From a virus (lineage: Duplodnaviria > Heunggongvirae > Uroviricota > Caudoviricetes), in the IMG/VR virus record IMGVR_UViG_2565956721_000005: DNA of 43,002 nt. One strand, 5' to 3'. Both the position numbers and the translations under genes were made by a program. Below, piece after piece: positions 1,286-43,002 of the stretch (the first letter of the stretch is position 1; the number at the start of each line of letters is the position of its first letter). Under the pieces are notes generated by a model that ran no database searches, was not told the DNA's origin, and was given only the letters and a program-made list of their open reading frames with translations.

Positions 1286-1510
1286 AACCGCAGCACGTTC
1301 TTGCTTAAGACGTGCTGCGGCATAATCCCAATGATTACTCCCTGACAGGGTTCGTAGGCCACTCAATATCAGGTGCAGTTGATGTATCAACACGGTTCAG
1401 CAACACCCGATACTTTTTCCAGGCTTCCAGCAATGAGGTTTCTTCCTCCGTTGCAATTTCCAGATCTGCAGCATCCTGAAGCGGCGCAATATGCTCACTG
1501 GCTACCTGCA
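1286..1510. repeat. direct repeat copy 2 (tfa 3' end plus hairpin ccgcagcacgt...acgtgctgcgg)
   Basis: Sequence identity with 236-460; perfect inverted repeat at 1288-1320. Confidence 0.8.
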
Positions 1511-1919
1511 TCAGGTTGTTTTTTGTTTCTTCCGCCTCCCGGATCCGGAACATTTTTTCTGCTTCCGTATCCTTCACCCAGGCTGTGCCGTTCCACTTCT
1601 GAAACTCCCCTTCCGGCGATAACCAGGTAACATTTTCCGGTAACGGACCGAGTTCAGAAATAAATAACTCGTCCCCTGACGCTACGTCATAAACCGTTTT
1701 ACCCCGATGGTCTTCAACGAGATGCCACGATGCCTCATCACTGTTGAAAACAGCCACAAAGCCAGCAGGAATATCTGGTGGTGCAATATCGGTACTGTTT
1801 GCTGGCAGACCTGTATGAGGCGGAATATATGCGTCACCTTCACCAATAAATTCATTAGTGCCGGCCAGCAGATTATAAATTTTTATGGTCCGTGCTTGTT
1901 CACTCATTCTGAATGCCAT
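1335..1919 (-). CDS. tfa: tail fibre assembly protein Tfa
   Basis: 194 aa, [24 protein letters not shown]... near-identical to recalled lambda Tfa; ATG overlaps stf stop (TAATG). Confidence 0.9.
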
Positions 1920-4894
1920 TATGCAAGCCTCACAATATAGTTAAATGCGATGTTTTTGACGGTGTTTTCCGCGTTACCAGCAGCGTTAACGGTGATGGTG
2001 TGTCCATGTGAACCAATCGCAACGGAGTGCGTATGCGCACCAATACCTACAGTATGTGCATGTGCGCCAGAACTTGCTGCAGTACCAGACAGCGAGTGGG
2101 TATGAGCACCTGCTGACTGTGTCTGAATACGTTGATAATACGATCTACGGGAAGAAGTCCCCGGGCTTACTTGATACTGTGAATCCTGGACATAAGTGAA
2201 CCCACCGCCATCATAAAATGCTAACGCAGAACCGCCGCCTCCTGGCCAACGAATACCATTACCATGAGTATGATCACCGGCAGACCCCGTAGAGCCACTC
2301 AGACTGTGCGTATGCGCCCCGGTGTTATTCGTGGATTTGGTTCCGTAATCAAACGACGATGTGTTTTTCGTCCCCAAATCCGTACTGGATGCGCTGGCGC
2401 TGTGGGTGTGCGATTTAATGCCGTCCTGTTCCTGAGACAATACGGCACGACCACTGGCGGGTTTGCCCTTAATCGTCCAGCCACGCATATCAGGGATCAC
2501 GCCTGACGGATAAGCGGCTGCAAGTTTCGGGTATGCAGATTTGTCAAAAGTCTGCCCCTGCATCAGGGCATAGCCAGACGGAACGGTATCTGATGGCCAC
2601 GGGATTGGTGCGCCAGGCGGATAAAACTGCTCTGATGGCGTATAGAGTGAATAAACTGTACCGTCCGTTAACCCTTCCGGCTTATTAGCAGAATATGCTG
2701 GTGACGTATGAATCGTCACGCTGGCATTACTGGTATAATCCCATTGAATATTTACACCAGTCGCATAATTTCCGATTGCAACGTAAATATCGTAAGTATC
2801 ACCAGATGTATTGACCCAGGCAAAATTTGTAAACCCTGTCGATGTGCGCTGCCATAAAGCACCAGTAATCCCCTTCGGATTACCATTACCTGCACGCAAA
2901 ACAAGTTCAGATATACCTGCCTGTTGAGGTGACCCCACGTTAAATCCCGCACCACCAATCAACGTAATTGAAACAACAGAACTCGCCTGTGGCATGGTTA
3001 CCGTTGCTAATTTGAACCAACCAGCACCACCGCTGAATGACATTGTTGTTGAGTTAAGCGTACCAATATCTTTCGGCGTCAGTGTTATATCCGCTGAAAG
3101 CGCCTTACCATTCACCTTACGGGCAGAAGGTACCCGACCATTCGCATTATTATTAGCTGCTTTCACTGCTTTCGGTGTCGCGGCAAGCGTTTCAGATGCG
3201 CTGTTGGTTGCACTACTGAGCTGGACAATTCCTTTTTGTGCTGTCGTAGCGTCCTGAGCAGTATATTTCCCGTTAGCAAGGTCATAGGCTGCCTTTACCG
3301 ACTTTGGCGTTGCCGCCAGCATTTCAGATGTGCTGTTGGTCGCGTTGCTAAGCTGAACTATCCCTTTCTGTGCTGTCGTTGCATCCTGTGCGGTGTATTT
3401 CCCGTTAGCCAGCTCATACGCGGCCTTAACGGCTTTTGGCGTTGCCGCCAGTGACTCGGAAGTGCTGTTAGTCGCACTGCTGAGCTGTACTATCCCCTTT
3501 TTCGTCGTGCTCGCATCCTCAAGCGCCACGGCGGATGCAATATCCTCTGCCCGTTTTGCCGCTGTCTCAGCGCGCGTTGCCGCGGATTCCGCCGTACTTT
3601 TGCTCTGAGCTGCCGCCGTCGCACTGCCAGCTGCCTCTGTCGCCTTCGTGGATGCCGTCGTGGCGCTGCCCTTTGCTGCTGACGCCTGTCTGGTCGCCTC
3701 ATCTTTTGAAGCAGACGCAGATGATGCCGATGACGCCGCCGAACTGGCGGACGATGCGGCAGCCGTTTTTGAGGATTCTGCGCTGGTTTCCGACGCTTTC
3801 GCGTTCGTCTTGGATGTCTTCGCTGCGGAAGCAGACCTCGCTGCTGCGCTGGCCTGTACAGCGGCTTCGCCAGCCTTCGTTGTGGCTGTTGAAGCAGACG
3901 ATGCAGCACTTTCTGCCGATTTTCCGGCGGCGGTGGCACTGGCTGAGGCCTGCCCGGCACTTGTTGACGCGGCACTGGCAGATAATGCAGCCGCTGTTTT
4001 TGAGTCTGCCGCAGCTGAGGCGCTCTGTCCCGCTGCCGTTTCAGAAGACCTGGCGTTCGTCTCGGACGTTTTTGCCGCCTTCGCAGAATTTGCTGCCGCC
4101 GTTGCCGAGGAAGCTGCGCTGCTGGCGCTCGAGGCTGCGTTCGTTTCTGATGATTTTGCCGCCTCTTTTGAAGCCGACGCATCCCGTGCTGAAGTGGCTG
4201 CTTCTGACGCTTTCGTGGTCGCGGTGGATGCAGAAGTGGCTGCTGATTGTTGTGACGCTGCGGCATTCGTTTCTGACGTTTTCGCGGCACTGGCGCTGGT
4301 AGCTGCCGCGCTTTTTGATGACTCTGCAGCAGCAGCACTTTTTGCTGCTTCACGGGCCTTTGTCGATGCCGCTCCTGCGCTGGAAGACGCTGACTGAGCC
4401 GACGACGCGGCCTGTCCGGCTGACGTGCTGGCGGCACGTGCTGAGGCTGCAGCATCGGTTGCATGAGTTGCCGCCTCGCTGGCTGATGCACTGGCATCGC
4501 TGGCTGATTTTTTCGCGGCTGCCGTATTCTGTGCAACCGCGGAGGCGTTACGTGACACCTCTTCCACCATCTGCTCAAAGCGGCGCAGTGCCTCCGGTCG
4601 GACATCATCCTCCGTCATGGCACCGAGAAAATCATTCAGCGTACCTGGTCTGGAACCTTCATAGACGGTAATGGTCCCGGCATGTGAAGGCGGAAAACCT
4701 TCAACCAGCAGGGTGACGCTGTACTGACCATGCTCAACATCCATGCTGTAACGCCCGGCTTCATCCGGATTTTCAGAGGCCACCGTGTTCACCACCACCG
4801 TGCTGCTGGTCCGTCTGGCCTTCAGCACAATGGTGCAGTTCTGTACTGGTTTTCCTGTGCCATCTTTAAGCACGCCAGAAATTTTTACTGTCAT
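1919..4894 (-). CDS. stf: side tail fibre protein Stf
   Basis: 991 aa; N-terminus [20 protein letters not shown]..., Ala/Ser-rich central repeats and C-terminus ...[31 protein letters not shown] match recalled lambda Stf. Confidence 0.9.
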
Positions 4895-4896
4895 AC

Positions 4897-4928
4897 TTTT
4901 CCACCAATAAAAAAAGCCCGCAGCAGTG
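4897..4928 (-). terminator. intrinsic terminator downstream of lom
   Basis: Minus-strand hairpin CCCGTGGCGTCACTGCTGCGGG followed by T7. Confidence 0.6.
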
Positions 4929-5045
4929 ACGCCACGGGCTTCAGGACAGTGTAACTTTACGTTTCCTCAAACGCAGTTCACCCCATAAGGCGGATGAACC
5001 TGCGTATCATAACAATATTTACAGAAGATAAATCGGCGTCTGTTG

Positions 5046-5645
5046 TCAGAAACGGTATCCGATACCAACAATAAATGCATCCGTTCGCCAGTCGCCACTA
5101 CCGGAACCTTCATAAGCAAGGTCAATGGTCACGGATTCGGTCGGGTTAAACTGCACGCCAGCCCCCCACGCCAGAGACGTGTTGCTGTGGCGACCGTCAT
5201 CACTTCCGGTCAGCACATCGTGCGTTTTCCCCTTGTTGTCAGTTACGCGGAGATAATCCCCGGAGAAAGTCGACACACGGCTGTAAGCCACACCCGCCAT
5301 CGAATACGCGCTGAACCATTCATTCACGCGTACAGACGGCCCCGCCATCACGCTGAACCAGCGGTTACGCACGGAATCTTCATGCCAGCGGGTATCGCTG
5401 TAGTGCGTTTTTTGCTCATCCTCAGCATTGGCATAACTGAAGGACGTAATCAGCCCCAGCGCGTCCGTAAACTCATAACGGTATTTCACGTTAATCCCGT
5501 TCAGATTATCGCTGCCGGGAGCGTTCGTACGGGCATGAAGATACCCCGCGCTCAGTGTGGACTGATGTTCAGACGCCCATGCAGGCGCACCGGATACGGA
5601 CAGACAGATGGCTGCGGACAAAATGACTGCACAAACTTTACGCAT
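5046..5645 (-). CDS. lom: outer membrane protein Lom (Ail/Lom family)
   Basis: 199 aa with signal peptide; near-identical to recalled lambda Lom (…GINVKYRYEFTD…GSGSGDWRTD…). Confidence 0.9.
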   Translation of the reverse strand: MRKVCAVILSAAICLSVSGAPAWASEHQSTLSAGYLHARTNAPGSDNLNGINVKYRYEFTDALGLITSFSYANAEDEQKTHYSDTRWHEDSVRNRWFSVMAGPSVRVNEWFSAYSMAGVAYSRVSTFSGDYLRVTDNKGKTHDVLTGSDDGRHSNTSLAWGAGVQFNPTESVTIDLAYEGSGSGDWRTDAFIVGIGYRF

Positions 5646-5665
5646 AATTACCTCTCGCTTTTCTG

Positions 5666-5693
5666 CAATAAAAAAGGCGCCATTTCTGGCGCC
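5666..5693 (-). terminator. intrinsic terminator between J and lom
   Basis: Minus-strand hairpin GGCGCC-AGAAAT-GGCGCC followed by TTTTTTATT. Confidence 0.6.
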
Positions 5694-5712
5694 CGTATAT
5701 GGGTTATAAAAT

Positions 5713-7524
5713 TCAGCTGATACTGATGCCTGCGGTGGCTTTCTTCATCACCACAACCAGCAAATCGCTGATACTTGCTGTGGGATACCAGTTATTCACC
5801 AGCCATGCTGACACCGAAAACTCCAGCGTCATGTGGCCGCGACCAGCTGGCATATCAATAACACCACTGTAAATCAGCGTATTATCCAGCGCGGTACGGT
5901 TATAAATTTCAGCACCGTTTTTCCGTACTATCAGGCGGCATGACGAATAAATATCGTTATTCTCCCGCTCATGTTTAGCGCCGCTGAATGCCACCGCCGG
6001 AATAACAATCTGCCGGTCAAACGGCTGATCGTCATAAACCCTGACGGTGATGGTCCCTGATGGCCACCGTTCCGGTGCACGGGAGTCCCGGGGGAAAGCT
6101 TTGCCCACTGTTTTAACGAGATCGCCTTCAATCTGGTTGGCGGACAATTTTCCCAGAACCCGACAGTTCTCGTTAATCGTGACGTTGTTGAGCGTCCCGG
6201 AGTTCGCATTCACGTTACCGCTGATATCGGCATTTTTCGCCGTCAGCCGCCCGTCCGGTGTCAGGGAAAATGCCGGAGGATTACCGCCGCTGGTAATGGT
6301 CGGAGCCGTCAGGCGTTTCAGGAACACGTCGTTCATGAATATCTGATCGCCCTGACCAACAAACATCGGCTTTGTGTTGCCATTCGCAGGATTAATCATC
6401 GCAATCCGGTCAGCAGCCAGAAGCACCTGACTCTGCATACCTGCTGGCGTATTCTCAATACCGGCTCCGATACCCGCAATATAAAGGCGTCCGTCCTTCA
6501 TCTGCTGCAGTTTCACGGCCCACATGCTGTTCAGGTTATTATTTGTATCAACCTGAACTTTCTGTATCTGCTGGATTGCCGCACTCTGGTCTTCCAGTTT
6601 TTTATTGACGGTCTGCGTGATTTCATTGCTGACATTCGTAATGGACGTCCTGATTTCAGCCAGGTCCGGCGCAAGCTGACCGTTATCAATCTGCGTCCAC
6701 AACTCCTGGGCCAGATGTGTTTTCCCGATTTCTCCTTTGAAAAAATCCAGGTAACCTTCCGCATCATCGCTCGCCCGACCGACAGCCTCCACGAATGCCG
6801 ATTTGCCAACGGTGTTCACACTGCGAACGTAAAAATAATAATCATGGCCCGGTTTGATATTGATACTGGCGGCTATCCAGTACAGCGCCGTACCAAGATA
6901 GCGGGCTGTGGTTTCAACCTGCCTGATATCGGTAATCCGCTTTTCCGAGAACCAGAACTCAAACTGTACCGTCGGGTCATAAACAGCAAGATGCGGCGTG
7001 GCGGTTATCTGAAAATAGCCCGGCGTCAGCTCAATCCTCGACGGTGCTGCCGGTGCGGCAATCCGGAACGATACCGACGCCGGATCGCCCTGCTGCCCCC
7101 GGGCATTTACCGCCCGGACTGTCAGCCTGTAGTTCCCCAGCGCCAGTTGCGTGAAGCGGTATGTGGTTTCCGTCGTCCGGGCCGTGCTGACCAGTCGCTC
7201 ACTGCCGTCGTCCGCTGTTACGGTCAGACGGAGCAGGAAGCTCACGCCCTTCACCACCTTCGGTGTGTCCCATCGCGCCAGCACCTGATATTCCCCGCTG
7301 TCTGCAGTGACTTCGGCGGTCAGGTGCTGCACTGCTGGCGGCGTGACACCATTCACCGTGCCGCTCTGGTCACCGTCAAAGTGCGCCCCGTTATCCACGA
7401 TGGCTTCTTTCTCCGGTACATGCTGCACGGCGGTGATGGCATACGTGCCGTCATCGTTCTCACGGATACTCACGCAGCGGAACAGGCGCTGGCGCAGGTT
7501 TGTTAATGGAAAGGAAGCCGCCAA
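5713..7524 (-). pseudogene. J: host specificity protein J, C-terminal about 600 aa only (5' half deleted)
   Basis: Frame matches lambda J from ...[28 protein letters not shown]... to the C-terminus; no native start; fused to the 3' end of L. Confidence 0.85.
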
Positions 7525-22010: not shown

Positions 22011-22244
22011 ATGTCAACGAAGAACAGAACCCGCAGAACAACAACCCGCAACATCCGCTTTCCTAACCAAATGATTGAACAAATTAACATCGCTCTTGTT
22101 CAAAAAGGGTCCGGGAATTTCTCAGCCTGGGTCATTGAAGCCTGCCGCCGGAGACTGTGCTCAGAAAAAAGAGTTTCGCCTGAAGCAAACAAAGAAAAGA
22201 GTGACATTACTGAATTGCTCAGAAAACAGGTCAGACCAGATTGA
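22011..22244 (+). CDS. small basic protein, possibly ribbon-helix-helix (YlcI/DUF3950-like, from memory)
   Basis: 77 aa MSTKNRTRRTTTRNIRFPNQMIEQINIALVQKGSGNFSAWVIEACRRRL; opposite strand to phage late genes. Confidence 0.5.
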   Translation: MSTKNRTRRTTTRNIRFPNQMIEQINIALVQKGSGNFSAWVIEACRRRLCSEKRVSPEANKEKSDITELLRKQVRPD

Positions 22245-22301: not shown

Positions 22302-22712
22302 ATGGCTCAGATTGCCATTTTTAAACAAATATTCGATAAAGTGCGAAATAATTTAAACTATCACTGGTTTTATTCTGAACTAAAACGTCACAATGTCTCA
22401 CATTACATTTACTATTTAGCCACAGAGAATATTCATCTTGTTCTTGAAAACGATAATACGGTTTTAATAAAAGGACAGGGTAAGGTTGTAAATGTAAGAT
22501 TTTCAAAAAATAAATGCCTTATAGAAGCCACCTTAAAAGGATTCAAATCAGGAGAGTTATCATTTTACGAATACAGGAAAAATCTTGCTACAGCAGGGGT
22601 TTTCAGATGGATTACAAATATCCACGAAAACAAAAGGTATTACTATACCTTTGATAATTCATTACTCTTTACTGAGAACATTCAGAACACTACACAAATA
22701 TTTCCGCACTAA
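22302..22712 (+). CDS. hypothetical protein (YbcV/DUF1398-like, from memory); AT-rich moron
   Basis: ORF with GGAAGG RBS before MAQIAIFKQ; AT-rich; ORF track gives 22287 as an alternative start. Confidence 0.5.
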
Positions 22713-23019
22713 ATCATAACGTCCGGTTTCTTCCGTGCCAGAACCGGACTCGCTGGCATGATGAAATATGTGTACCCGGTAACCCCGGTGTGCATCGTTT
22801 TTGATTATTCCCCCACACTTGTGCAGAAGGAGTTCCCCGTCAGGCTACAGTCATAATTAATGCAAGAGTACAGCGACGATACAGCGCACAGAAATAAATC
22901 AGGTATCCATTGACTTCACAAAGACGGTACATAGCATCGACAGGAGTAATTGCGTAAATTGAACTCTTGGCACACTTTAGCCACCGGCGAATCTTCAGCG
23001 GATTATCCTTGGCCGGTTT

Positions 23020-25008: not shown

Positions 25009-25224
25009 TTACTCTCCCCGTGCCGCCTTACGACGGTCCTCTCTGATTTTGAAATACAGGTTAGTCAGATATGTCAGCAGCCCAAACAGCAGACTCCCCA
25101 GCACGCCTATTGCCGCCCACTGAGACGGGGAAACCCTGTCCAGCAACTGCAGGAACCAGTAGCCCGTTCCCACCGCTGACGTGGTGTATGACACACCTGT
25201 TGTGATTTTTTCCATCTGGTCCAT
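25009..25224 (-). CDS. S: pinholin (S21-like class II holin) with dual-start motif MDQM
   Basis: 71 aa ...[46 protein letters not shown] matches recalled phage 21 S; ORF track start at 25329 is an upstream extension. Confidence 0.9.
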
Positions 25225-25492
25225 ACCCCGTCTCCCGTTATCCGGAAGCTGAAAACAATAAAAAAGCCACCAGTTAACTACTGATGGCTCTGATAACTCA
25301 TGCAAGCGTCTCAGACGACCCACTGACACTACCGGTGAGTTTAACGATACCTTCCATTTGACTGGCTCACTTTTTATGATGATGCCGATGCATTTATCTC
25401 CAGCGCCAGACTTTCTATCTCAACGCCATACGTTACATTTTTGGTAATATCCATCAGCGTCAGTGCATTTAGTCCCACTGCCAGACTGTCTT

Positions 25493-25720
25493 TTATGGCC
25501 TGGAATGCCGGGCCAGTACGATGACGTAGTACCAATCCGGCTCAGTTGCACCACTGACCACCACATCACCTTCTGCTGCAATCGCCTGCATCAGGGTATA
25601 AGGGGTTATGGCCACCGGACTACCAAACGGCTGCCAGCCCTCCTTCAGTTTTTGTGTCAGTCGTTTCGCAAGGTCTGACGGCGATACCGCCCTGACCACG
25701 TCATAGTGTTTAAATGCCAT
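25493..25720 (-). CDS. hypothetical 75-aa protein upstream of holin
   Basis: Strong RBS GGGAGGA 6 nt before ATG; MAFKHYDVVRAVSPSDLAKRLTQKLKEGWQPFGSPVAITPYTLMQAIAAEGDVVVSGATEPDWYYVIVLARHSRP. Confidence 0.6.
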   Translation of the reverse strand: MAFKHYDVVRAVSPSDLAKRLTQKLKEGWQPFGSPVAITPYTLMQAIAAEGDVVVSGATEPDWYYVIVLARHSRP

Positions 25721-25942: not shown

Positions 25943-25954
25943 GCCCACAAGAAA

Positions 25955-26190
25955 ACCCCTCCGGAGAGGGGCTAAAGCCGCGTATCTGTATCATCATGCA
26001 CATGGTGCCGGGTGCCTCCCGGTGAGTTCAGCCCGGTGCCACTAAACCCGCGTCATTCTCGTTTTGATAATCAGAGATTATACCGTCACCAGTCGCCCCT
26101 CCGCTCAGGGGGATTCACCATGCGAAATTTTTTTAACAAATGCCCAGTCTGACAGGCAACTGTCAACTTACTGAATTGTGAGCAACATAG
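25955..26190 (-). repeat. direct repeat unit 1 (about 215 bp) with conserved GC hairpins, ending in a minus-strand intrinsic terminator (25955-25978)
   Basis: Shares long identical blocks with 26440-26655; terminal CCCCTC-TCCG-GAGGGG followed by TTTTCTT. Confidence 0.75.
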
Positions 26191-26227
26191 CATTTAACGG
26201 GGAACCTGTTTTCTGCAGTAAAAAGGC

Positions 26228-26255
26228 CCACCGGAGCGGATGGGCCTGGAAGGAT
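26228..26255 (-). terminator. intrinsic terminator between the two repeat units
   Basis: Minus strand GGCCCATCCGCTCCGGTGGGCC followed by TTTTTACTG. Confidence 0.5.
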
Positions 26256-26439
26256 AGCGGTCATGTGATGCCGGTTTCCCGGTAACTCAGCACCGGTATC
26301 TGAGTCAACGTTTTCTCTACTGGGTCATTTCCGATACGCCCTGCCTGCTGACAGGCTTTCATCACATCTGAAAATATAGCACCCTGACTGATACTGTAGT
26401 ACCTAAGGTTCCAGAAACTGTGATGTATCCGGCACAGAA

Positions 26440-26655
26440 AAGCCCCTCCGGAGAGGGGCTGGAGAGTGGCGCTATGTGCCATTGCATGGTGCCGGGTGCC
26501 TCCCGGTGAATTCAGTACCAGCACCTGAATCCGCGATTATCCCATATACCTACTCGCTGATTGCCCCTCCGCACAGGGGGATTCACCATGCCAGTTTCTT
26601 TTAACAAACTCCCCGCAAACCAGACAACAGTCAACCGCCTGAATTGTGAGACATT
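26440..26655 (-). repeat. direct repeat unit 2, paralog of 25955-26190, ending in a minus-strand intrinsic terminator (26443-26466)
   Basis: Conserved blocks GGTGCCGGGTGCCTCCCGGTGA, CCCCTCCGC.CAGGGGGATTCACCATG, CAGTCAAC..CTGAATTGTGAG; terminal CCCCTCTCCGGAGGGGCTTTTCT. Confidence 0.75.
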
Positions 26656-26695
26656 TAAAAAAAAGCCCGCAAAAGCGAGCCAGGGAAAATAAGTG

Positions 26696-26772
26696 TGGCG
26701 CGTTGTACTGGATTCGAACCAGTGACCGATTGCTTAGAAGGCAATTGCTCTGTCCGGCTGAGCTAACAACGC
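26696..26772 (-). tRNA. argO: tRNA-Arg, anticodon UCU (reads AGA/AGG); argO-like
   Basis: Cloverleaf read by hand: acceptor GCGTTGT, anticodon loop CTTCTAA, T-arm ACTGGTTCGAATCCAGT, 3' GCCA. Confidence 0.85.
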
Positions 26773-26785
26773 AGGATACAGATAA

Positions 26786-26862
26786 TGGACCGCCTTCGGG
26801 GACCCGAACTCCGCGCAACCAGCTTCGAAGGCTGGCGCTCTTTCCTGATGAGCTAATGGCGG
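26786..26862 (-). tRNA. argN: tRNA-Arg-like, anticodon UCG; non-canonical T-loop (TTCGGGT) and one acceptor-stem mismatch
   Basis: Cloverleaf read by hand: anticodon stem CCAGC/GCTGG, loop CTTCGAA, D-loop with GG, 3' ...GGTCCA. Confidence 0.6.
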
Positions 26863-26869
26863 TATGTGA

Positions 26870-26945
26870 TGGTGGCCCTTGCTGGATTTGAACCAGCGAC
26901 CTGGCGATTATGAGTCGCTCGCTCTCACCACTGAGCTAAAGGGCC
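26870..26945 (-). tRNA. ileZ: tRNA-Ile2, anticodon CAU (lysidine type, reads AUA); ileZ/ileX-like
   Basis: GGCCCTTTAGCTCAGTGGTGAGAGC...CTCATAA...GGTTCAAATCCAGCAAGGGCCACCA; near-identical to recalled E. coli ileX. Confidence 0.85.
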
Positions 26946-26954
26946 GGGAGCAGA

Positions 26955-26983
26955 ATAATAATGGTGCGTAATTAATTCTGCAA
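26955..26983 (-). promoter_or_regulatory. sigma70-type promoter for the tRNA operon (TTGCAG-17-TATTAT)
   Basis: Minus strand GATTGCAGAATTAATTACGCACCATTATTATTCTGCTCCC directly before the first tRNA. Confidence 0.6.
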
Positions 26984-26994
26984 TCTCATCCGTT

Positions 26995-28044
26995 TCAAAC
27001 GATTAAATCCTGAACTTCCCTGACTGTCTGCTCAAAACGTCCGGTCTCCAGCTCAACACCAATCGCACGACGCCCCAGTGCCATCGCCGCTTTTACCGTT
27101 GAACCCGACCCCATGAAAAAATCCGCAACCAGATCACCAGGACGGCTACTTGCGCTGATTATCTGCTGCAGCATTTCTGCCGGTTTTTCGCACGGATGTT
27201 TCCCGGGATAGAACTGCACCGGTTTATGCGTCCACACATCGGTATACGGCACCTGCACCGTCACGCCAAAATACCGCCGCAGATGTTTATATTCACTCAG
27301 CAGCTCCGCATACTGCCGGTTCAGTGAGGTATACGTATCCACCAGCTGGTGGTGGAGCTTTTCCAGTTCACCACGCCGATGCTTCTCTTCTGCCACCCGG
27401 GCAAACAGCGCCTGTAATTTCAGATAATCGCTTTCATTCGGTAGCTGCCACTGACTGGCACTGAACCAGTGCGACACCATGTTTTTCTTTCCTGTGGCAT
27501 CTGCAATCTGTTTTGCCGTTATCCCCAGGGCCGCGCGCGCATCACGAAAGTAAGAAATCAGCGGGGCCATCACATGCTGTTTCAGTGCACTGCCCTTCGC
27601 CGCATACCCGGCATCTTTCGGACGATACGGCCCCTGATAATGTTCCGCGAACAGAATGCGCTCTGTGGCGGGGAAATACGCCCGCAGCCTTTCCTTGTTG
27701 CATCCGTTCCAGCGTCCGGACGGCTTCGCCCAGATAATATGGTTCAGCACACTGAAGCGTTCACGCATCATGATTTCGATATCAGATGCCAGGCGATGAC
27801 CACAGAACAGGTAAAGACTTCCGGCAGGTTTCAGCACCCGCCAGAACTGCGCCAGACACTGGTCCAGCCACTTTAGGTAATCATCGTCGCCCTTCCACTG
27901 GTTATCCCAGCCCTCAGGCTTCACTTTAAAGTACGGCGGGTCCGTGACTATCAGGTCAACAGAATTTTCGGGTAACGACCGGATAAATTCCAGGCAGTCG
28001 GCGTTGATTAACTCACAACTGGATATTTTTACAGTATTAAGCAT
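26995..28044 (-). CDS. orphan DNA methyltransferase (beta-class amino-MTase, N6-adenine or N4-cytosine)
   Basis: 349 aa; motif IV TDPPY near the N-terminus and motif I DFFMGSGST near the C-terminus; no adjacent endonuclease. Confidence 0.8.
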   Translation of the reverse strand: MLNTVKISSCELINADCLEFIRSLPENSVDLIVTDPPYFKVKPEGWDNQWKGDDDYLKWLDQCLAQFWRVLKPAGSLYLFCGHRLASDIEIMMRERFSVLNHIIWAKPSGRWNGCNKERLRAYFPATERILFAEHYQGPYRPKDAGYAAKGSALKQHVMAPLISYFRDARAALGITAKQIADATGKKNMVSHWFSASQWQLPNESDYLKLQALFARVAEEKHRRGELEKLHHQLVDTYTSLNRQYAELLSEYKHLRRYFGVTVQVPYTDVWTHKPVQFYPGKHPCEKPAEMLQQIISASSRPGDLVADFFMGSGSTVKAAMALGRRAIGVELETGRFEQTVREVQDLIV

Positions 28045-28180: not shown

Positions 28181-28208
28181 AAATAAAAAAGCCTTCACTG
28201 CGGAAGGC
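28181..28208 (-). terminator. intrinsic terminator after the 65-aa ORF
   Basis: Minus strand GCCTTCCGCAGTGAAGGC followed by TTTTTTATTTG. Confidence 0.6.
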
Positions 28209-28392
28209 GTCTGTAACAACCGAACTGATAGTCTGCCAGACCCGCCATAACCAGCTGAGTCAGTATTAACTGGCAGCGTTCGCGTGAAAGGTAAGTATTC
28301 TGCGCTATCTCCCCGACTGTCGCCGGGTCGGTAACGCTTAATTCATTAAACACCACTCTGGCGGTTTCTGTCATATCCTGCTGTTTTAGCAT
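28195..28392 (-). CDS. hypothetical 65-aa protein between two terminators downstream of pR'
   Basis: ATG with AAGGA RBS; MLKQQDMTETARVVFNELSVTDPATVGEIAQNTYLSRERCQLILTQLVMAGLADYQFGCYRRLPQ. Confidence 0.45.
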   Translation of the reverse strand: MLKQQDMTETARVVFNELSVTDPATVGEIAQNTYLSRERCQLILTQLVMAGLADYQFGCYRRLPQ

Positions 28393-28510: not shown

Positions 28511-28536
28511 ATAAAAAACCCGCCAGGCGGCGGGGT
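28511..28536 (-). terminator. tR'-like intrinsic terminator about 65 nt downstream of the late promoter
   Basis: Minus strand CCCGCC-GCCT-GGCGGG followed by TTTTTT. Confidence 0.6.
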
Positions 28537-28559: not shown

Positions 28560-28611
28560 CATAAAACGCCCATCGTTAGAGCAAATTTACCACAGATTCG
28601 GGAAAAATCAA
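28560..28611 (-). promoter_or_regulatory. late promoter pR' with qut-like region (TTGATT-16-TAAATT)
   Basis: Minus strand TTGATTTTTCCCGAATCTGTGGTAAATTTGCTCTAACGATGGGCG resembles recalled lambda pR' (GGGTAAATTTGACTCAACGATGGG). Confidence 0.65.
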
Positions 28612-28616
28612 CAACA

Positions 28617-29438
28617 CTATCGCGTTACCCTCTTTAACTGCCGCTCCGCCCATGCCTCTTCAATGTCAAACCGAACCACCAACGTATCGTAAAAGCGTTT
28701 CACTGATTTTTTCCACGTATCAAGCGTGATAGCACTCGTCACTTTGCATATGGCATTAAATGCCTCCGTTGATGGCAGCCTTTCACAGCCACGACCACCA
28801 CAACGCTGGCAATCTCTGATAACAGGCATACCACGTTTTACCGACTCTTCACGATGAATGGCGACACCACGCCCACGGCAATCCTTACAGGCGGTGGAAA
28901 CCTCACCCTTTCCGCCACACTCCGGACAGGCAACTTTTACCACCTCCCTGACTTTTTTCCATTCTTCCCAGTAAGACGGATACACGCCTTTTGTGCACTT
29001 TGCCCACACTGGTGGCTTACCATCCGGATACTGGATCTTGTTTGTAAAAACCTCGCTTTCAATAAATTTTTTTCCGTGACAGCAAGGGCACTGTTTTTTG
29101 CTCGCCGCGCTACGGGCATAATCTTCAAACGCATACGAAGCCATAATGCGCATCACTACCGGTTTTATTTCTGCCGGAAGTTTTCTCAACGCCGCCACAC
29201 GATCGCACCGACTGAGTGCATAATCTGCCAGTAATTCTGTTGCCCGCGCCCTGTCATTCATACTGATGCCCATTTTCTCCAGGAACGCAGAAAACCCCAT
29301 CTCAGCCCGATTCTGTGTCATGCCCTGCGCGGCCATCACATCAGTGATACTCAGCGCATCTTTTGACGTTGAGGCCGATGCATCGGTCAGGCCAGGGGAT
29401 TTTGGGGAGTAGTATTTCGGTAAATCTTCCAGTTTCAT
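28617..29438 (-). CDS. antitermination protein Q (long Q family with CxxCxGxG zinc-finger repeats)
   Basis: 273 aa with CPCCHGKK, CPECGGKG, CKDCRGRG, CQRCGGRG; positioned immediately upstream of pR'. Confidence 0.75.
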   Translation of the reverse strand: MKLEDLPKYYSPKSPGLTDASASTSKDALSITDVMAAQGMTQNRAEMGFSAFLEKMGISMNDRARATELLADYALSRCDRVAALRKLPAEIKPVVMRIMASYAFEDYARSAASKKQCPCCHGKKFIESEVFTNKIQYPDGKPPVWAKCTKGVYPSYWEEWKKVREVVKVACPECGGKGEVSTACKDCRGRGVAIHREESVKRGMPVIRDCQRCGGRGCERLPSTEAFNAICKVTSAITLDTWKKSVKRFYDTLVVRFDIEEAWAERQLKRVTR

Positions 29439-31315: not shown

Positions 31316-31471
31316 TTACTCCTCAGGTTCGTAAACTGTGAAGACAGCGACCTCCGTCTGGCCGGTTCGGATTCGTACCTCGCAGAGGTCTTTCCTCGTT
31401 ACCAGTGCCGTCACTATGACGGTTAAACAGATGACGATCAGGGCGATTAACATCGCCTTTTGCTGCTTCAT
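31316..31471 (-). CDS. hokD: Hok-family type I toxin (HokD/RelF-like)
   Basis: 51 aa MKQQKAMLIALIVICLTVIVTALVTRKDLCEVRIRTGQTEVAVFTVYEPEE; hairpins at the mRNA 3' end and in the upstream leader as in hok loci. Confidence 0.9.
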   Translation of the reverse strand: MKQQKAMLIALIVICLTVIVTALVTRKDLCEVRIRTGQTEVAVFTVYEPEE

Positions 31472-31686
31472 AGCCTGCTTCTCCTTGCCTTTCGGCACGT
31501 AAGAGGCTAACCTAGATTTGCCGTTCATAGATTGAGCCTCAGATTAATGTTAAGCGTCTTGCAGGACGCGTAATATTAACTGGGGCTTTTCTCTATCTGC
31601 CTTTGGTGTTCATGCCTGAGGCAGATAGCCTCAAGCACCCGCAGCAATTCTACTTAACTCCCGTCACCTCGCCAATATAAAATCAA

Positions 31687-38413: not shown

Positions 38414-38469
38414 TTTCTGGTGACGTTTGGCGGTATCAGTTTTACTCCGTGACTGCTCTGCCGCCCTTT
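38414..38469 (+). ncRNA. dicF: DicF small RNA (ftsZ-targeting sRNA of the dicB operon)
   Basis: TTTCTGGTGACGTTTGGCGGTATCAGTTTTACTCCGTGACTGCTCTGCCGCCC followed by TTTTT; matches recalled E. coli DicF. Confidence 0.85.
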
Positions 38470-41645: not shown

Positions 41646-41894
41646 ATGGCAAGACTTATTCTGCTCACTGAGTGGACAAAGGAGGAATTCAGTGAACCGG
41701 TCCCTACTCCGAGTACGTTAAGTAAATACGCTAAAGCCGGAATGATATTTCCTCTCCCCAAAAAAGTTGGAAGACGCTGGCGAGTGGATCCGCAAGCTCG
41801 CTTTGTCGGAATGGTAAACAAGCCGGAGGTGATCGCCACAGATCACCCTGCTTTGAAGAGGATACTGGAAGATGGCGCGCCCGCGAAAATATAA
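41646..41894 (+). CDS. xis: excisionase-like protein
   Basis: 82 aa immediately upstream of and overlapping int. Confidence 0.6.
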   Translation: MARLILLTEWTKEEFSEPVPTPSTLSKYAKAGMIFPLPKKVGRRWRVDPQARFVGMVNKPEVIATDHPALKRILEDGAPAKI

Positions 41895-43002
41895 AACCGA
41901 TGTTCCGGGATTATCTCCGTATTTTGACAAAAGAAATAACAAAGTTTACTGGCGTTACAGGCATCCCATAACAGGCAAAAATCACGGTCTCGGCAGTATT
42001 GACCAGAAACTGGCAGAAACTATTGCAGCAGAAGCGAACAGCCGTCTTGCCCGGCAGCAAATGGAACAAATGCTCAGTCTGCAGGAGAAAATTATTAGTG
42101 ACACCGGCGGTTCATCAACCGTTACCATTTTTCTGAATAATTACAGAAAAATTCAACAGGAAAGATATGAAAACGGCGAGATCAAACTCAACACGCTGAA
42201 ACAGAAAGCGGCCCCTCTCAGGGTATTTGATGAACGTTTTGGCACCAGACCGTTAGATGCCATAACCGTAAAAGATGTGGTATCAGTACTGGAAGAGTAC
42301 AAGGCCAGAGGACATAACAGAATGGGACAAATTTTCAGGAAAGTACTGATCGATGTTTTCCGGGAAGCTCAGCAAACGGGCGATGTCCCGCCAGGCTTTA
42401 ACCCTGCAGAATCGGCAAAAAAACCGCAGGTGCGGATATCAAGACAGCGACTGACTTTTGATGAGTGGATGATGATTTATAACGCAGCGGAAAAGGATGG
42501 TTACTTTTTACAGCGCGGTATGCTGCTGGCACTGATGACAGGCCAGCGCCTTTCAGATATTTGCAAAATGCAATTTTCGGATATCCGGGATGGTTATCTT
42601 CATGTCGAACAGCAAAAAACAGGAACCCGGATTGCCATCCCTCTGGCTCTGCGTTGCGATAAATTAAATCTCACCCTAGATGATGTGGTGTCATCCTGCC
42701 GCGATTGCGTTCTTAGTCCGTGGCTATTGCACCACCATCACGCGAAAGGGACAGCTAAGCGCGGCGGGATGGTTAAGCCAGCAACATTAACCGTTGCATT
42801 TAAAAAAGCCCGGGATTCTGTGGATTACAACTGGCGTGCTAATGGCACCCCACCCTCTTTCCATGAGCAGAGATCTTTATCAGAGCGATTGTTCAGAGAG
42901 CAGGGGGTTGATACCAAAATTTTGCTGGGCCATTCGAATCAAAAAATGACCGATATTTACAACGACGCACGCGGTAAGGAATGGAAAAAACTGGTCATTT
43001 GA
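41872..43002 (+). CDS. int: tyrosine integrase (phage integrase family); stop at window edge
   Basis: 376 aa; C-terminal ...LLGHSNQKMTDIYNDARGKEW... typical of tyrosine recombinases. Confidence 0.85.
   Translation: MARPRKYKTDVPGLSPYFDKRNNKVYWRYRHPITGKNHGLGSIDQKLAETIAAEANSRLARQQMEQMLSLQEKIISDTGGSSTVTIFLNNYRKIQQERYENGEIKLNTLKQKAAPLRVFDERFGTRPLDAITVKDVVSVLEEYKARGHNRMGQIFRKVLIDVFREAQQTGDVPPGFNPAESAKKPQVRISRQRLTFDEWMMIYNAAEKDGYFLQRGMLLALMTGQRLSDICKMQFSDIRDGYLHVEQQKTGTRIAIPLALRCDKLNLTLDDVVSSCRDCVLSPWLLHHHHAKGTAKRGGMVKPATLTVAFKKARDSVDYNWRANGTPPSFHEQRSLSERLFREQGVDTKILLGHSNQKMTDIYNDARGKEWKKLVI

Follow-up and report, generated by a model that had tools for sequence, protein, structure and literature searches.

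A probable ileZ-argN-argO transfer RNA operon with a variable middle gene in a stx-free prophage of Escherichia coli

Why should a virus whose late region resembles that of Shiga toxin (Stx) phages, yet lacks the toxin genes, carry three transfer RNA (tRNA) genes for codons that are rare in its host, and are all three of them likely to be of use? The question is raised by IMG/VR virus record IMGVR_UViG_2565956721_000005 (Caudoviricetes), a stretch of 43,002 nucleotides (43 kb), the whole of which is called the window here. An original prediction, made from the sequence alone, had noticed three tightly packed tRNA genes on its minus strand. We conclude that the trio is very probably the ileZ-argN-argO operon of lambdoid prophages, in this case within a toxin-free prophage beside ompW in Escherichia coli of the B2 or extraintestinal pathogenic (ExPEC) type. 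The middle gene, argN, is most likely a weakened or decaying copy that stands part-way along a series of decaying alleles.

Exactly three tRNA genes are called in the window by ARAGORN, all of them on the minus strand, and each is also detected by the Rfam tRNA model (RF00005, gathering score 29), so that the trio as first noticed is borne out by both predictors. The first, ileZ (26870-26945), has the anticodon CAU (CAT), is of the tRNA-Ile2 (lysidine) type, scores 72.5 bits and is annotated as tRNA-Ile by the annotation pipeline PGAP. It is followed by argN (26786-26862), a tRNA-Arg(UCG) gene of 43.4 bits present as a degraded allele (A6·A67, A52·C62, G58 and U73), and by argO (26696-26772), a canonical tRNA-Arg(UCU) gene of 70.1 bits. 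The three genes, full length and with encoded CCA ends, point the same way, CAU first, then UCG and UCU, with spacers of 7 and 13 nucleotides between them. They lie in mid-prophage, about 17 kb from int and ompW, and not at a prophage end.

The original prediction had likened this architecture to that of Stx phages, and the comparison agrees. Matches to the region occur in 311 phage records, most of them of Stx-converting phages, and several of these name the genes ileZ, argN and argO. Alignment shows the trio to be homologous to that of the reference phages, with 91.9-95.2% nucleotide identity to the records annotated in this way and 95% identity over 298 nucleotides to Stx2a_1447 (AP012536), a phage of the 933W/Sakai type. 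In Stx2a_1447 the order is Q, further on a 65-amino-acid open reading frame (ORF), a DNA methylase gene, ileZ, argN, argO, stxA, stxB, nanS-p, small ORFs, holin and endolysin, with a match to the small RNA (sRNA) STnc100 between stxB and nanS-p. The window shares with it the three anticodons, their order and strand, the upstream Q, 65-amino-acid ORF and methylase, the terminator past argO, and the downstream STnc100 and holin-YdfR-lysozyme genes, so that the order of Q, ORF, methylase, tRNAs and lysis genes is the same in both.

The two also differ. In the window no stxAB is present between the argO terminator and STnc100, STnc100 is duplicated, and nanS-p is reduced to a DUF1737 remnant; Q is a 273-amino-acid protein of the quuQ type instead of the 113-amino-acid protein of Stx2a_1447; and argN carries three damaging substitutions where the Stx2a_1447 allele is canonical. 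A tblastn search of the whole window with StxA and StxB of an Stx2a phage gave no match (best E about 1); the original prediction had seen no ORFs of their size. DNA homology to Stx2a_1447 runs to 38 nucleotides past argO (window 26658) and resumes at STnc100 (window 26653), so that a piece of about 1.3 kb bearing stxAB is exactly what the window is missing. The counterpart of this breakpoint in locus L002 spans 4665-6001, and the window resembles an empty site for a stxAB cassette of that size.

This lack of toxin genes is not an anomaly. Of 5426 complete E. coli genomes, 3061 have matches to the cassette region, with as many as 13 places in a single genome, and of the related IMG/VR loci with enough downstream sequence to judge, only 6 of 48 carry stxA and 42 do not. 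Absence of stx is the usual state for prophages carrying the trio; the original prediction was right about the absence itself and wrong to present it as something remarkable. A sequenced stx-free phage, PhiR49_2 (PV340570; 93.4% identity), also has Q, methylase, trio and holin without toxin genes, although its methylase gene is truncated, unlike that of the window, and its Q gene is of a different type. The prophage next to ompW in NU14 and ATCC 11775 is closer still, the locus being 99.7-100% identical and already annotated by PGAP. Descent from an Stx phage that lost stx was considered and rejected: no stx remnant was detected, and the flanking STnc100 shares no more than 69% identity with its counterpart in the Stx2a phage.

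As for what the tRNAs decode, ileZ is identical at 68 of 76 positions to the core sequence of the host genes ileX and ileY, with an identical anticodon arm and one compensatory pair change, from C6-G67 to U6-A67. (The ileX/ileY query matches annotated tRNA-Ile at 100% and has matches in 5424 of 5426 genomes.) The host genes have G27·U43 where ileZ has A27·C43, and the host-like copies are preceded by a TGGATT -35 element, in contrast to the TTGCAG of the prophage-borne gene. The acceptor pairs C4-G69 and C5-G68 are determinants for TilS, and ileZ has both. By these features ileZ would be a decoder of AUA of the tRNA-Ile2 type, presumably lysidine-modified, and not a methionine tRNA; ARAGORN labels it Met because the anticodon is read literally, as if unmodified.

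The identity elements for arginyl-tRNA synthetase are A20, C35, U or G at position 36 and a purine discriminator at position 73. The argO gene carries A20, C35, U36 and G73 and has no stem mismatches. Its sequence in the window is the commonest allele (29 of 65 segments). The comparison drew on 120 IMG/VR loci retrieved by an ileZ pattern, 65 of which have argO where it is expected. The argN gene carries A20, C35 and G36 but U73, a feature present in every argN allele. E. coli is not known to have a UCG arginine isoacceptor, and argN would therefore add direct reading of CGA and CGG.

The trio appears to have its own signals for the start and end of transcription. Upstream, on the minus strand, a predicted promoter (26955..26983) consists of TTGCAG (26983-26978), a 17-nucleotide spacer and TATTAT (26960-26955); it begins 12 nucleotides past the methylase stop codon and ends 9 nucleotides ahead of ileZ. 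A generic promoter scan reported neither this site nor the candidate late promoter pR' described below, both of which match the sigma-70 consensus at only 8 of 12 positions, and conservation was thereafter judged by comparing upstream contexts across loci. A TTGnnn-16/17-TAnnnT motif is kept in 21 of 21 distinct upstream sequences homologous to that of the window, ending 8-10 nucleotides before ileZ. Among 15 unrelated upstream sequences the same motif occurs in 8, where shuffling would lead one to expect 0.29 (500 shuffles gave at most 3), while 6 of the other 7 unrelated contexts have a TGGAnn -35-like element and TATAAT at the same position, before host-like GGCCCC tRNAs. The promoter of the original prediction is thus conserved in related and unrelated contexts alike, though still as a predicted element. 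A 'pS tRNA promoter' has been named upstream of tRNA-Ile in Stx2 phages, in a paper on O157:H7 clades (PMC2858043). Past argO, also on the minus strand, a terminator scan found an intrinsic terminator (26656..26681), in which the hairpin GGCTCGC-TTTT-GCGGGCT (26681-26664) is followed by T8; many related loci keep the hairpin, though its loop varies.

Codon usage gives such a unit something to supply. Counts per 1000 codons were taken from the NU14 copy of the prophage and from 44 core host coding sequences. The host core has ATA 2.8, AGA 1.4, AGG 1.1, CGA 3.3 and CGG 5.2; the early genes of the prophage have 12.9, 7.8, 6.4, 6.7 and 9.9, respectively, and the lysis and accessory genes 12.3, 21.9, 8.2, 6.9 and 6.9. 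ATA, AGA and AGG are thus enriched 4-16 fold in these two groups (P from 1e-13 to 5e-4). The head and tail genes, with ATA 4.1, AGA 3.3, AGG 4.0, CGA 3.5 and CGG 16.6, do not follow. The original prediction had pointed to rare codons of the late genes, and a trio that serves late genes in general proved only partly right: the enrichment holds for early and lysis/accessory genes, whereas in the structural late genes ATA and CGA stand at host-like levels. The tRNA supply matches the codon demand of int, xis, early and small accessory genes more than that of structural late genes, with ynfO, int and xis as the likeliest beneficiaries of ileZ and argO. Demand chiefly in early and accessory genes fits a promoter that is active before Q acts.

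A few small genes are extreme in their rare Arg and Ile codons, as counted in the NU14 copy (L123). There ynfO (22623-22856; by offset about 22011-22244 of the window, plus strand) has 6 AGA in 77 codons, int (1865-2995) has 9 AGA, 3 AGG and 3 ATA, and xis (2973-3221) has 3 ATA, 2 AGA and 1 AGG in 82 codons. The window-to-NU14 offset places int and xis at about 41646-43002 of the window.

The middle gene raises the second half of the question. In the window argN reads CCGCCAU/UA/GCUC-AUCAGGAAA-GAGC/G/CCAGC-CUUCGAA-GCUGG/UUGCG/CGGAG-UUCGGGU-CCCCG/AAGGCGG/U/CCA. Both features singled out by the original prediction, a G in place of A58 (T-loop TTCGGGT) and an acceptor-stem mismatch (A6·A67), are present, and to them a second stem mismatch can be added, A52·C62 in the T-stem. 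The nearest intact allele differs at four positions: G52 to A breaks the T-stem pair, U67 to A breaks the acceptor pair, A58 is changed to G, and a change at position 57 is tolerated. Whereas intact alleles score about 56 bits (55.9-56), the window allele scores 12.5 bits less, and about 5 kcal/mol of cloverleaf stability are lost relative to the nearest intact allele. The three window-specific substitutions all favour a UUCGG/CCGAA hairpin, and selection for such a non-tRNA hairpin was considered and rejected, the fold being only 0.6 kcal/mol better than the cloverleaf and the derived alleles too few.

The three genes have fared very differently across the 65 segments. Pairwise diversity (pi) is 0.056 in argO, 0.167 in argN, 0.06 in the first spacer and 0.20 in the second; the value for ileZ, 0.004, is partly biased, and biased downward, by retrieval of the loci with a 25-base exact ileZ pattern. 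Among 37 argN variants, 12 distinct alleles, found in 22 segments, combine a perfect cloverleaf with T54-T55-C56, A58 and the UCG anticodon. These intact alleles vary at 8 of 35 unpaired but only 2 of 42 paired positions (Fisher P = 0.04), and both paired changes keep pairing. Variation that spares the stems in this way indicates that argN is, or lately was, under structural constraint in the phages with intact alleles. Other alleles form a graded series of damage. One (L048) has G58 alone; derivatives of the window allele have gone further, with a third mismatch in two (L073 and L080) and C32 changed to U in another (L030); and in five loci (L015, L006, L025, L017 and L004) all that is left is a remnant whose anticodon arm is scrambled or deleted, undetected by either ARAGORN or Rfam. 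In complete genomes argN is recognisable by megablast in 1231, as against 2579 in which at least 80% of the cassette region is covered. Within this series the window allele is most likely a weakened or decaying copy. The original suggestion that the middle tRNA may be decaying agrees with the comparison of degraded and intact alleles; predictors still accept the gene, so that decay is something that we infer.

Some observations do weigh against the account given so far. They include the modest match of the tRNA promoter to the sigma-70 consensus, head and tail genes in which ATA and CGA are close to host values and CGG alone is enriched, and the downward bias in the ileZ diversity; most of them, however, concern argN, and would be expected if the window copy were a fully functional tRNA-Arg(UCG) whose mismatches and G58 are tolerated. 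ARAGORN, Rfam (43.4 bits against 29) and PGAP all still call it a tRNA, the energy of its cloverleaf lies no more than 0.6 kcal/mol above the minimum free energy, and its D arm (with A20), anticodon arm and encoded CCA end are intact. A stem mismatch, A27·C43, is moreover present in ileZ despite its strong conservation. The exact window allele is found unchanged in 246 complete genomes and may still work, although such sharing can equally reflect recent common descent of one prophage and not selection. What makes full function rather unlikely in our judgement is that intact alleles have no stem mismatches and keep A58, which is not known to vary in E. coli elongator tRNAs, and that their variation avoids stems or preserves pairing, whereas the window allele has changed at three structurally critical sites at once, with the loss of 12.5 bits, and has given rise to derivatives (L073, L080 and L030) that are further damaged.

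Two other explanations do not centre on codon supply. Genes for tRNAs are frequent sites of prophage integration, tRNA matches near prophage sRNAs were interpreted as integration hot spots in a 2026 preprint on Pas sRNAs, and the neighbouring nanS-p gene is a remnant; on these grounds the tRNAs might be leftovers of att-site duplication, or relics of a former Stx phage, with no functional operon. We regard this as very improbable, given genes that are full length with CCA and sit in mid-prophage, some 17 kb from int and ompW, with a conserved predicted promoter and terminator and with ileZ and argO under strong purifying selection. Free phages whose genomes have been sequenced also carry the cassette, the stx-free PhiR49_2 among them; no protein-level stx remnant was detected; and the first STnc100 copy, which shares just 69% identity with its Stx2a-phage counterpart, speaks against an origin by recent deletion. 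Alternatively, the trio might mainly replace or shield host tRNAs, such as tRNA-Arg, against anticodon nucleases or tRNA-targeting toxins, a strategy documented for other phages. Two of the three tRNAs are arginine isoacceptors, in related arrays other tRNAs (Lys, Thr and Gly) are substituted, and ATA and CGA are scarcely enriched in the structural late genes, all of which would suit shielding; yet the anticodons fit exactly the codons most over-represented in early and lysis/accessory genes, the ileZ anticodon arm is that of host ileX, without evident escape changes in the anticodon loop, and no tRNA-targeting system was identified here, which leaves this explanation improbable.

The preferred reading remains that of an ileZ-argN-argO operon concerned with decoding, and its likely working can be sketched from the sequence. 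The sigma-70-type promoter 9 nucleotides upstream of ileZ, the three tRNAs and the intrinsic terminator would form a small, self-contained stable-RNA transcription unit within the Q-dependent late operon. Its own promoter would provide for tRNA synthesis in the lysogen and soon after induction; once Q acts at pR', terminator-resistant, Q-modified polymerase would also read through the unit. After lysidine modification ileZ would decode AUA, and argO (UCU) would decode AGA and AGG, codons that are rare in the host and enriched in the early and lysis/accessory genes of the prophage. An intact argN (UCG) would read CGA and CGG directly, and the window copy is probably impaired in this by G52 to A, A58 to G and U67 to A, heading towards the fully degenerate forms. 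The stxAB cassette of Stx phages is an optional insert directly past the argO terminator, of which the window prophage has no trace.

Decay may not be the only fate of the middle gene. A tRNA with a UUU (Lys) anticodon on the argN scaffold occurs in ileZ-Lys-Thr-Gly arrays in three loci (L007, at 7270-7346, L017 and L003); it is identical to argN at 64 of 77 positions, with three compensatory stem-pair changes, and in a further locus (L039) an argN allele has a UCU anticodon. Such cases suggest that prophage tRNA arrays undergo anticodon remodelling. Tentatively, and with considerable doubt, a more general pattern can be proposed, in which the middle slot is unstable, through repeated decay of argN (the window, L015-type, L025-type and L004 alleles) and in-place re-tooling of its anticodon to UCU or Lys-UUU, while ileZ and argO are frozen, so that selection would keep decoders of AUA and AGA/AGG and not of CGA/CGG. 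A shallow search of the literature found no description of this pattern.

The wider context of the trio is that of a resident prophage. The 9-kb stretch around it matches chromosomes of extraintestinal E. coli (NU14, avian pathogenic (APEC) O2:K1:H4 strains and others) at 99.7% identity, and the 301-nucleotide cassette recurs at 100% identity in the E. coli type strain ATCC 11775. The NU14 counterpart is a complete lambdoid prophage adjoining ompW, from int to tail fibre. Its order is int-xis-exo, the dicB/ydf region, cro, replication genes, hokD, DUF968, rusA and Q, then the 65-amino-acid ORF, DNA methylase, three tRNAs, holin, YdfR, lysozyme and Rz, and lastly lambda-like head and tail genes. 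PGAP annotates the trio there as tRNA-Ile, tRNA-Arg and tRNA-Arg, with no pseudogene flags.

That the trio lies downstream of Q and a DNA methyltransferase gene, as first described, is confirmed by Pfam. The antiterminator gene Q (28617..29438, minus strand; 273 amino acids, quuQ-like) matches PF03589 Antiterm (E 4.9e-49) and is called 'antitermination protein' by PGAP in NU14, and the methyltransferase gene (26995..28044, minus strand; 349 amino acids) matches PF01555 N6_N4_Mtase (E 3.6e-43), with 94% amino acid identity to the Stx2a_1447 methylase. Between them, again on the minus strand, lies the 65-amino-acid ORF (28195..28392), annotated as a hypothetical protein and 96.8% identical in amino acids to that of Stx2a_1447. 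Directly after Q, a pR'-like late promoter can be read from the sequence of the minus strand (28572..28611): TTGATT (28611-28606), a 16-nucleotide spacer, TAAATT (28589-28584) and, 6 nucleotides further downstream, a pause-like AACGAT element (28577-28572). It is followed on the same strand by a tR'-like intrinsic terminator (28513..28534), identified by terminator scan and sequence, in which the hairpin CCCGCCGCCTGGCGGG (28534-28519) precedes a T run. This region appears to resemble lambda pR' with its sigma-dependent pause element and tR'; if so, everything from the 65-amino-acid ORF through the lysis genes, tRNAs included, would belong to the Q-dependent late transcript. By Pfam, PGAP and the pR'/tR' sequence the trio is placed past Q, pR' and tR' and ahead of the lysis genes. 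The tR'-like terminator stands about 40 nucleotides past AACGAT, an arrangement from which a short transcript running from pR' to tR', comparable to lambda 6S RNA or StxS, would be expected.

Downstream of the trio, on the minus strand, the stxAB slot (25943..26620) is occupied by two diverged copies of STnc100 (26430-26620 and 25943-26152; Rfam RF02076, 136 and 161 bits). The tandem copies share repeat blocks of about 80-97% identity at a spacing of about 470-487 nucleotides, and each ends in its own terminator-like hairpin. The nanS-p esterase remnant (25499..25720, minus strand) retains the N-terminal DUF1737 only (PF08410; tblastn match of 88 amino acids at 68% identity; a pseudogene in PGAP), with a weak C-terminal trace at 25386-25481; the intact gene of Stx2a_1447 encodes 645 amino acids. 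The lysis cassette starts with a class II holin gene (25009..25224, minus strand; PF04971), for which PGAP gives a product of 71 amino acids in NU14, while the mechanical ORF reaches 25329. Elsewhere in the window, sok antitoxin beside hokD (31466-31640, minus strand), DicF beside dicB (38415-38466, plus strand) and IS009 RNA (1378-1576, minus strand) were detected at the Rfam gathering score, content that is typical of a Qin-like early region.

The cassette itself is long known, very common and already annotated: the trio has borne its gene names since Stx phages were first sequenced, and it is annotated in hundreds of RefSeq genomes, including that of the E. coli type strain. A late region that resembles that of Stx phages and lacks stx is a common state, and the architecture alone is no signature of a toxin phage. 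What the prophage tRNAs supply corresponds to the codons needed by early, integration and lysis/accessory genes, and not to those needed by the structural genes. One point is of mild interest in its own right, namely the contrast, within a single small operon, between near-invariant ileZ and argO and an argN that appears to be decaying or remodelled.

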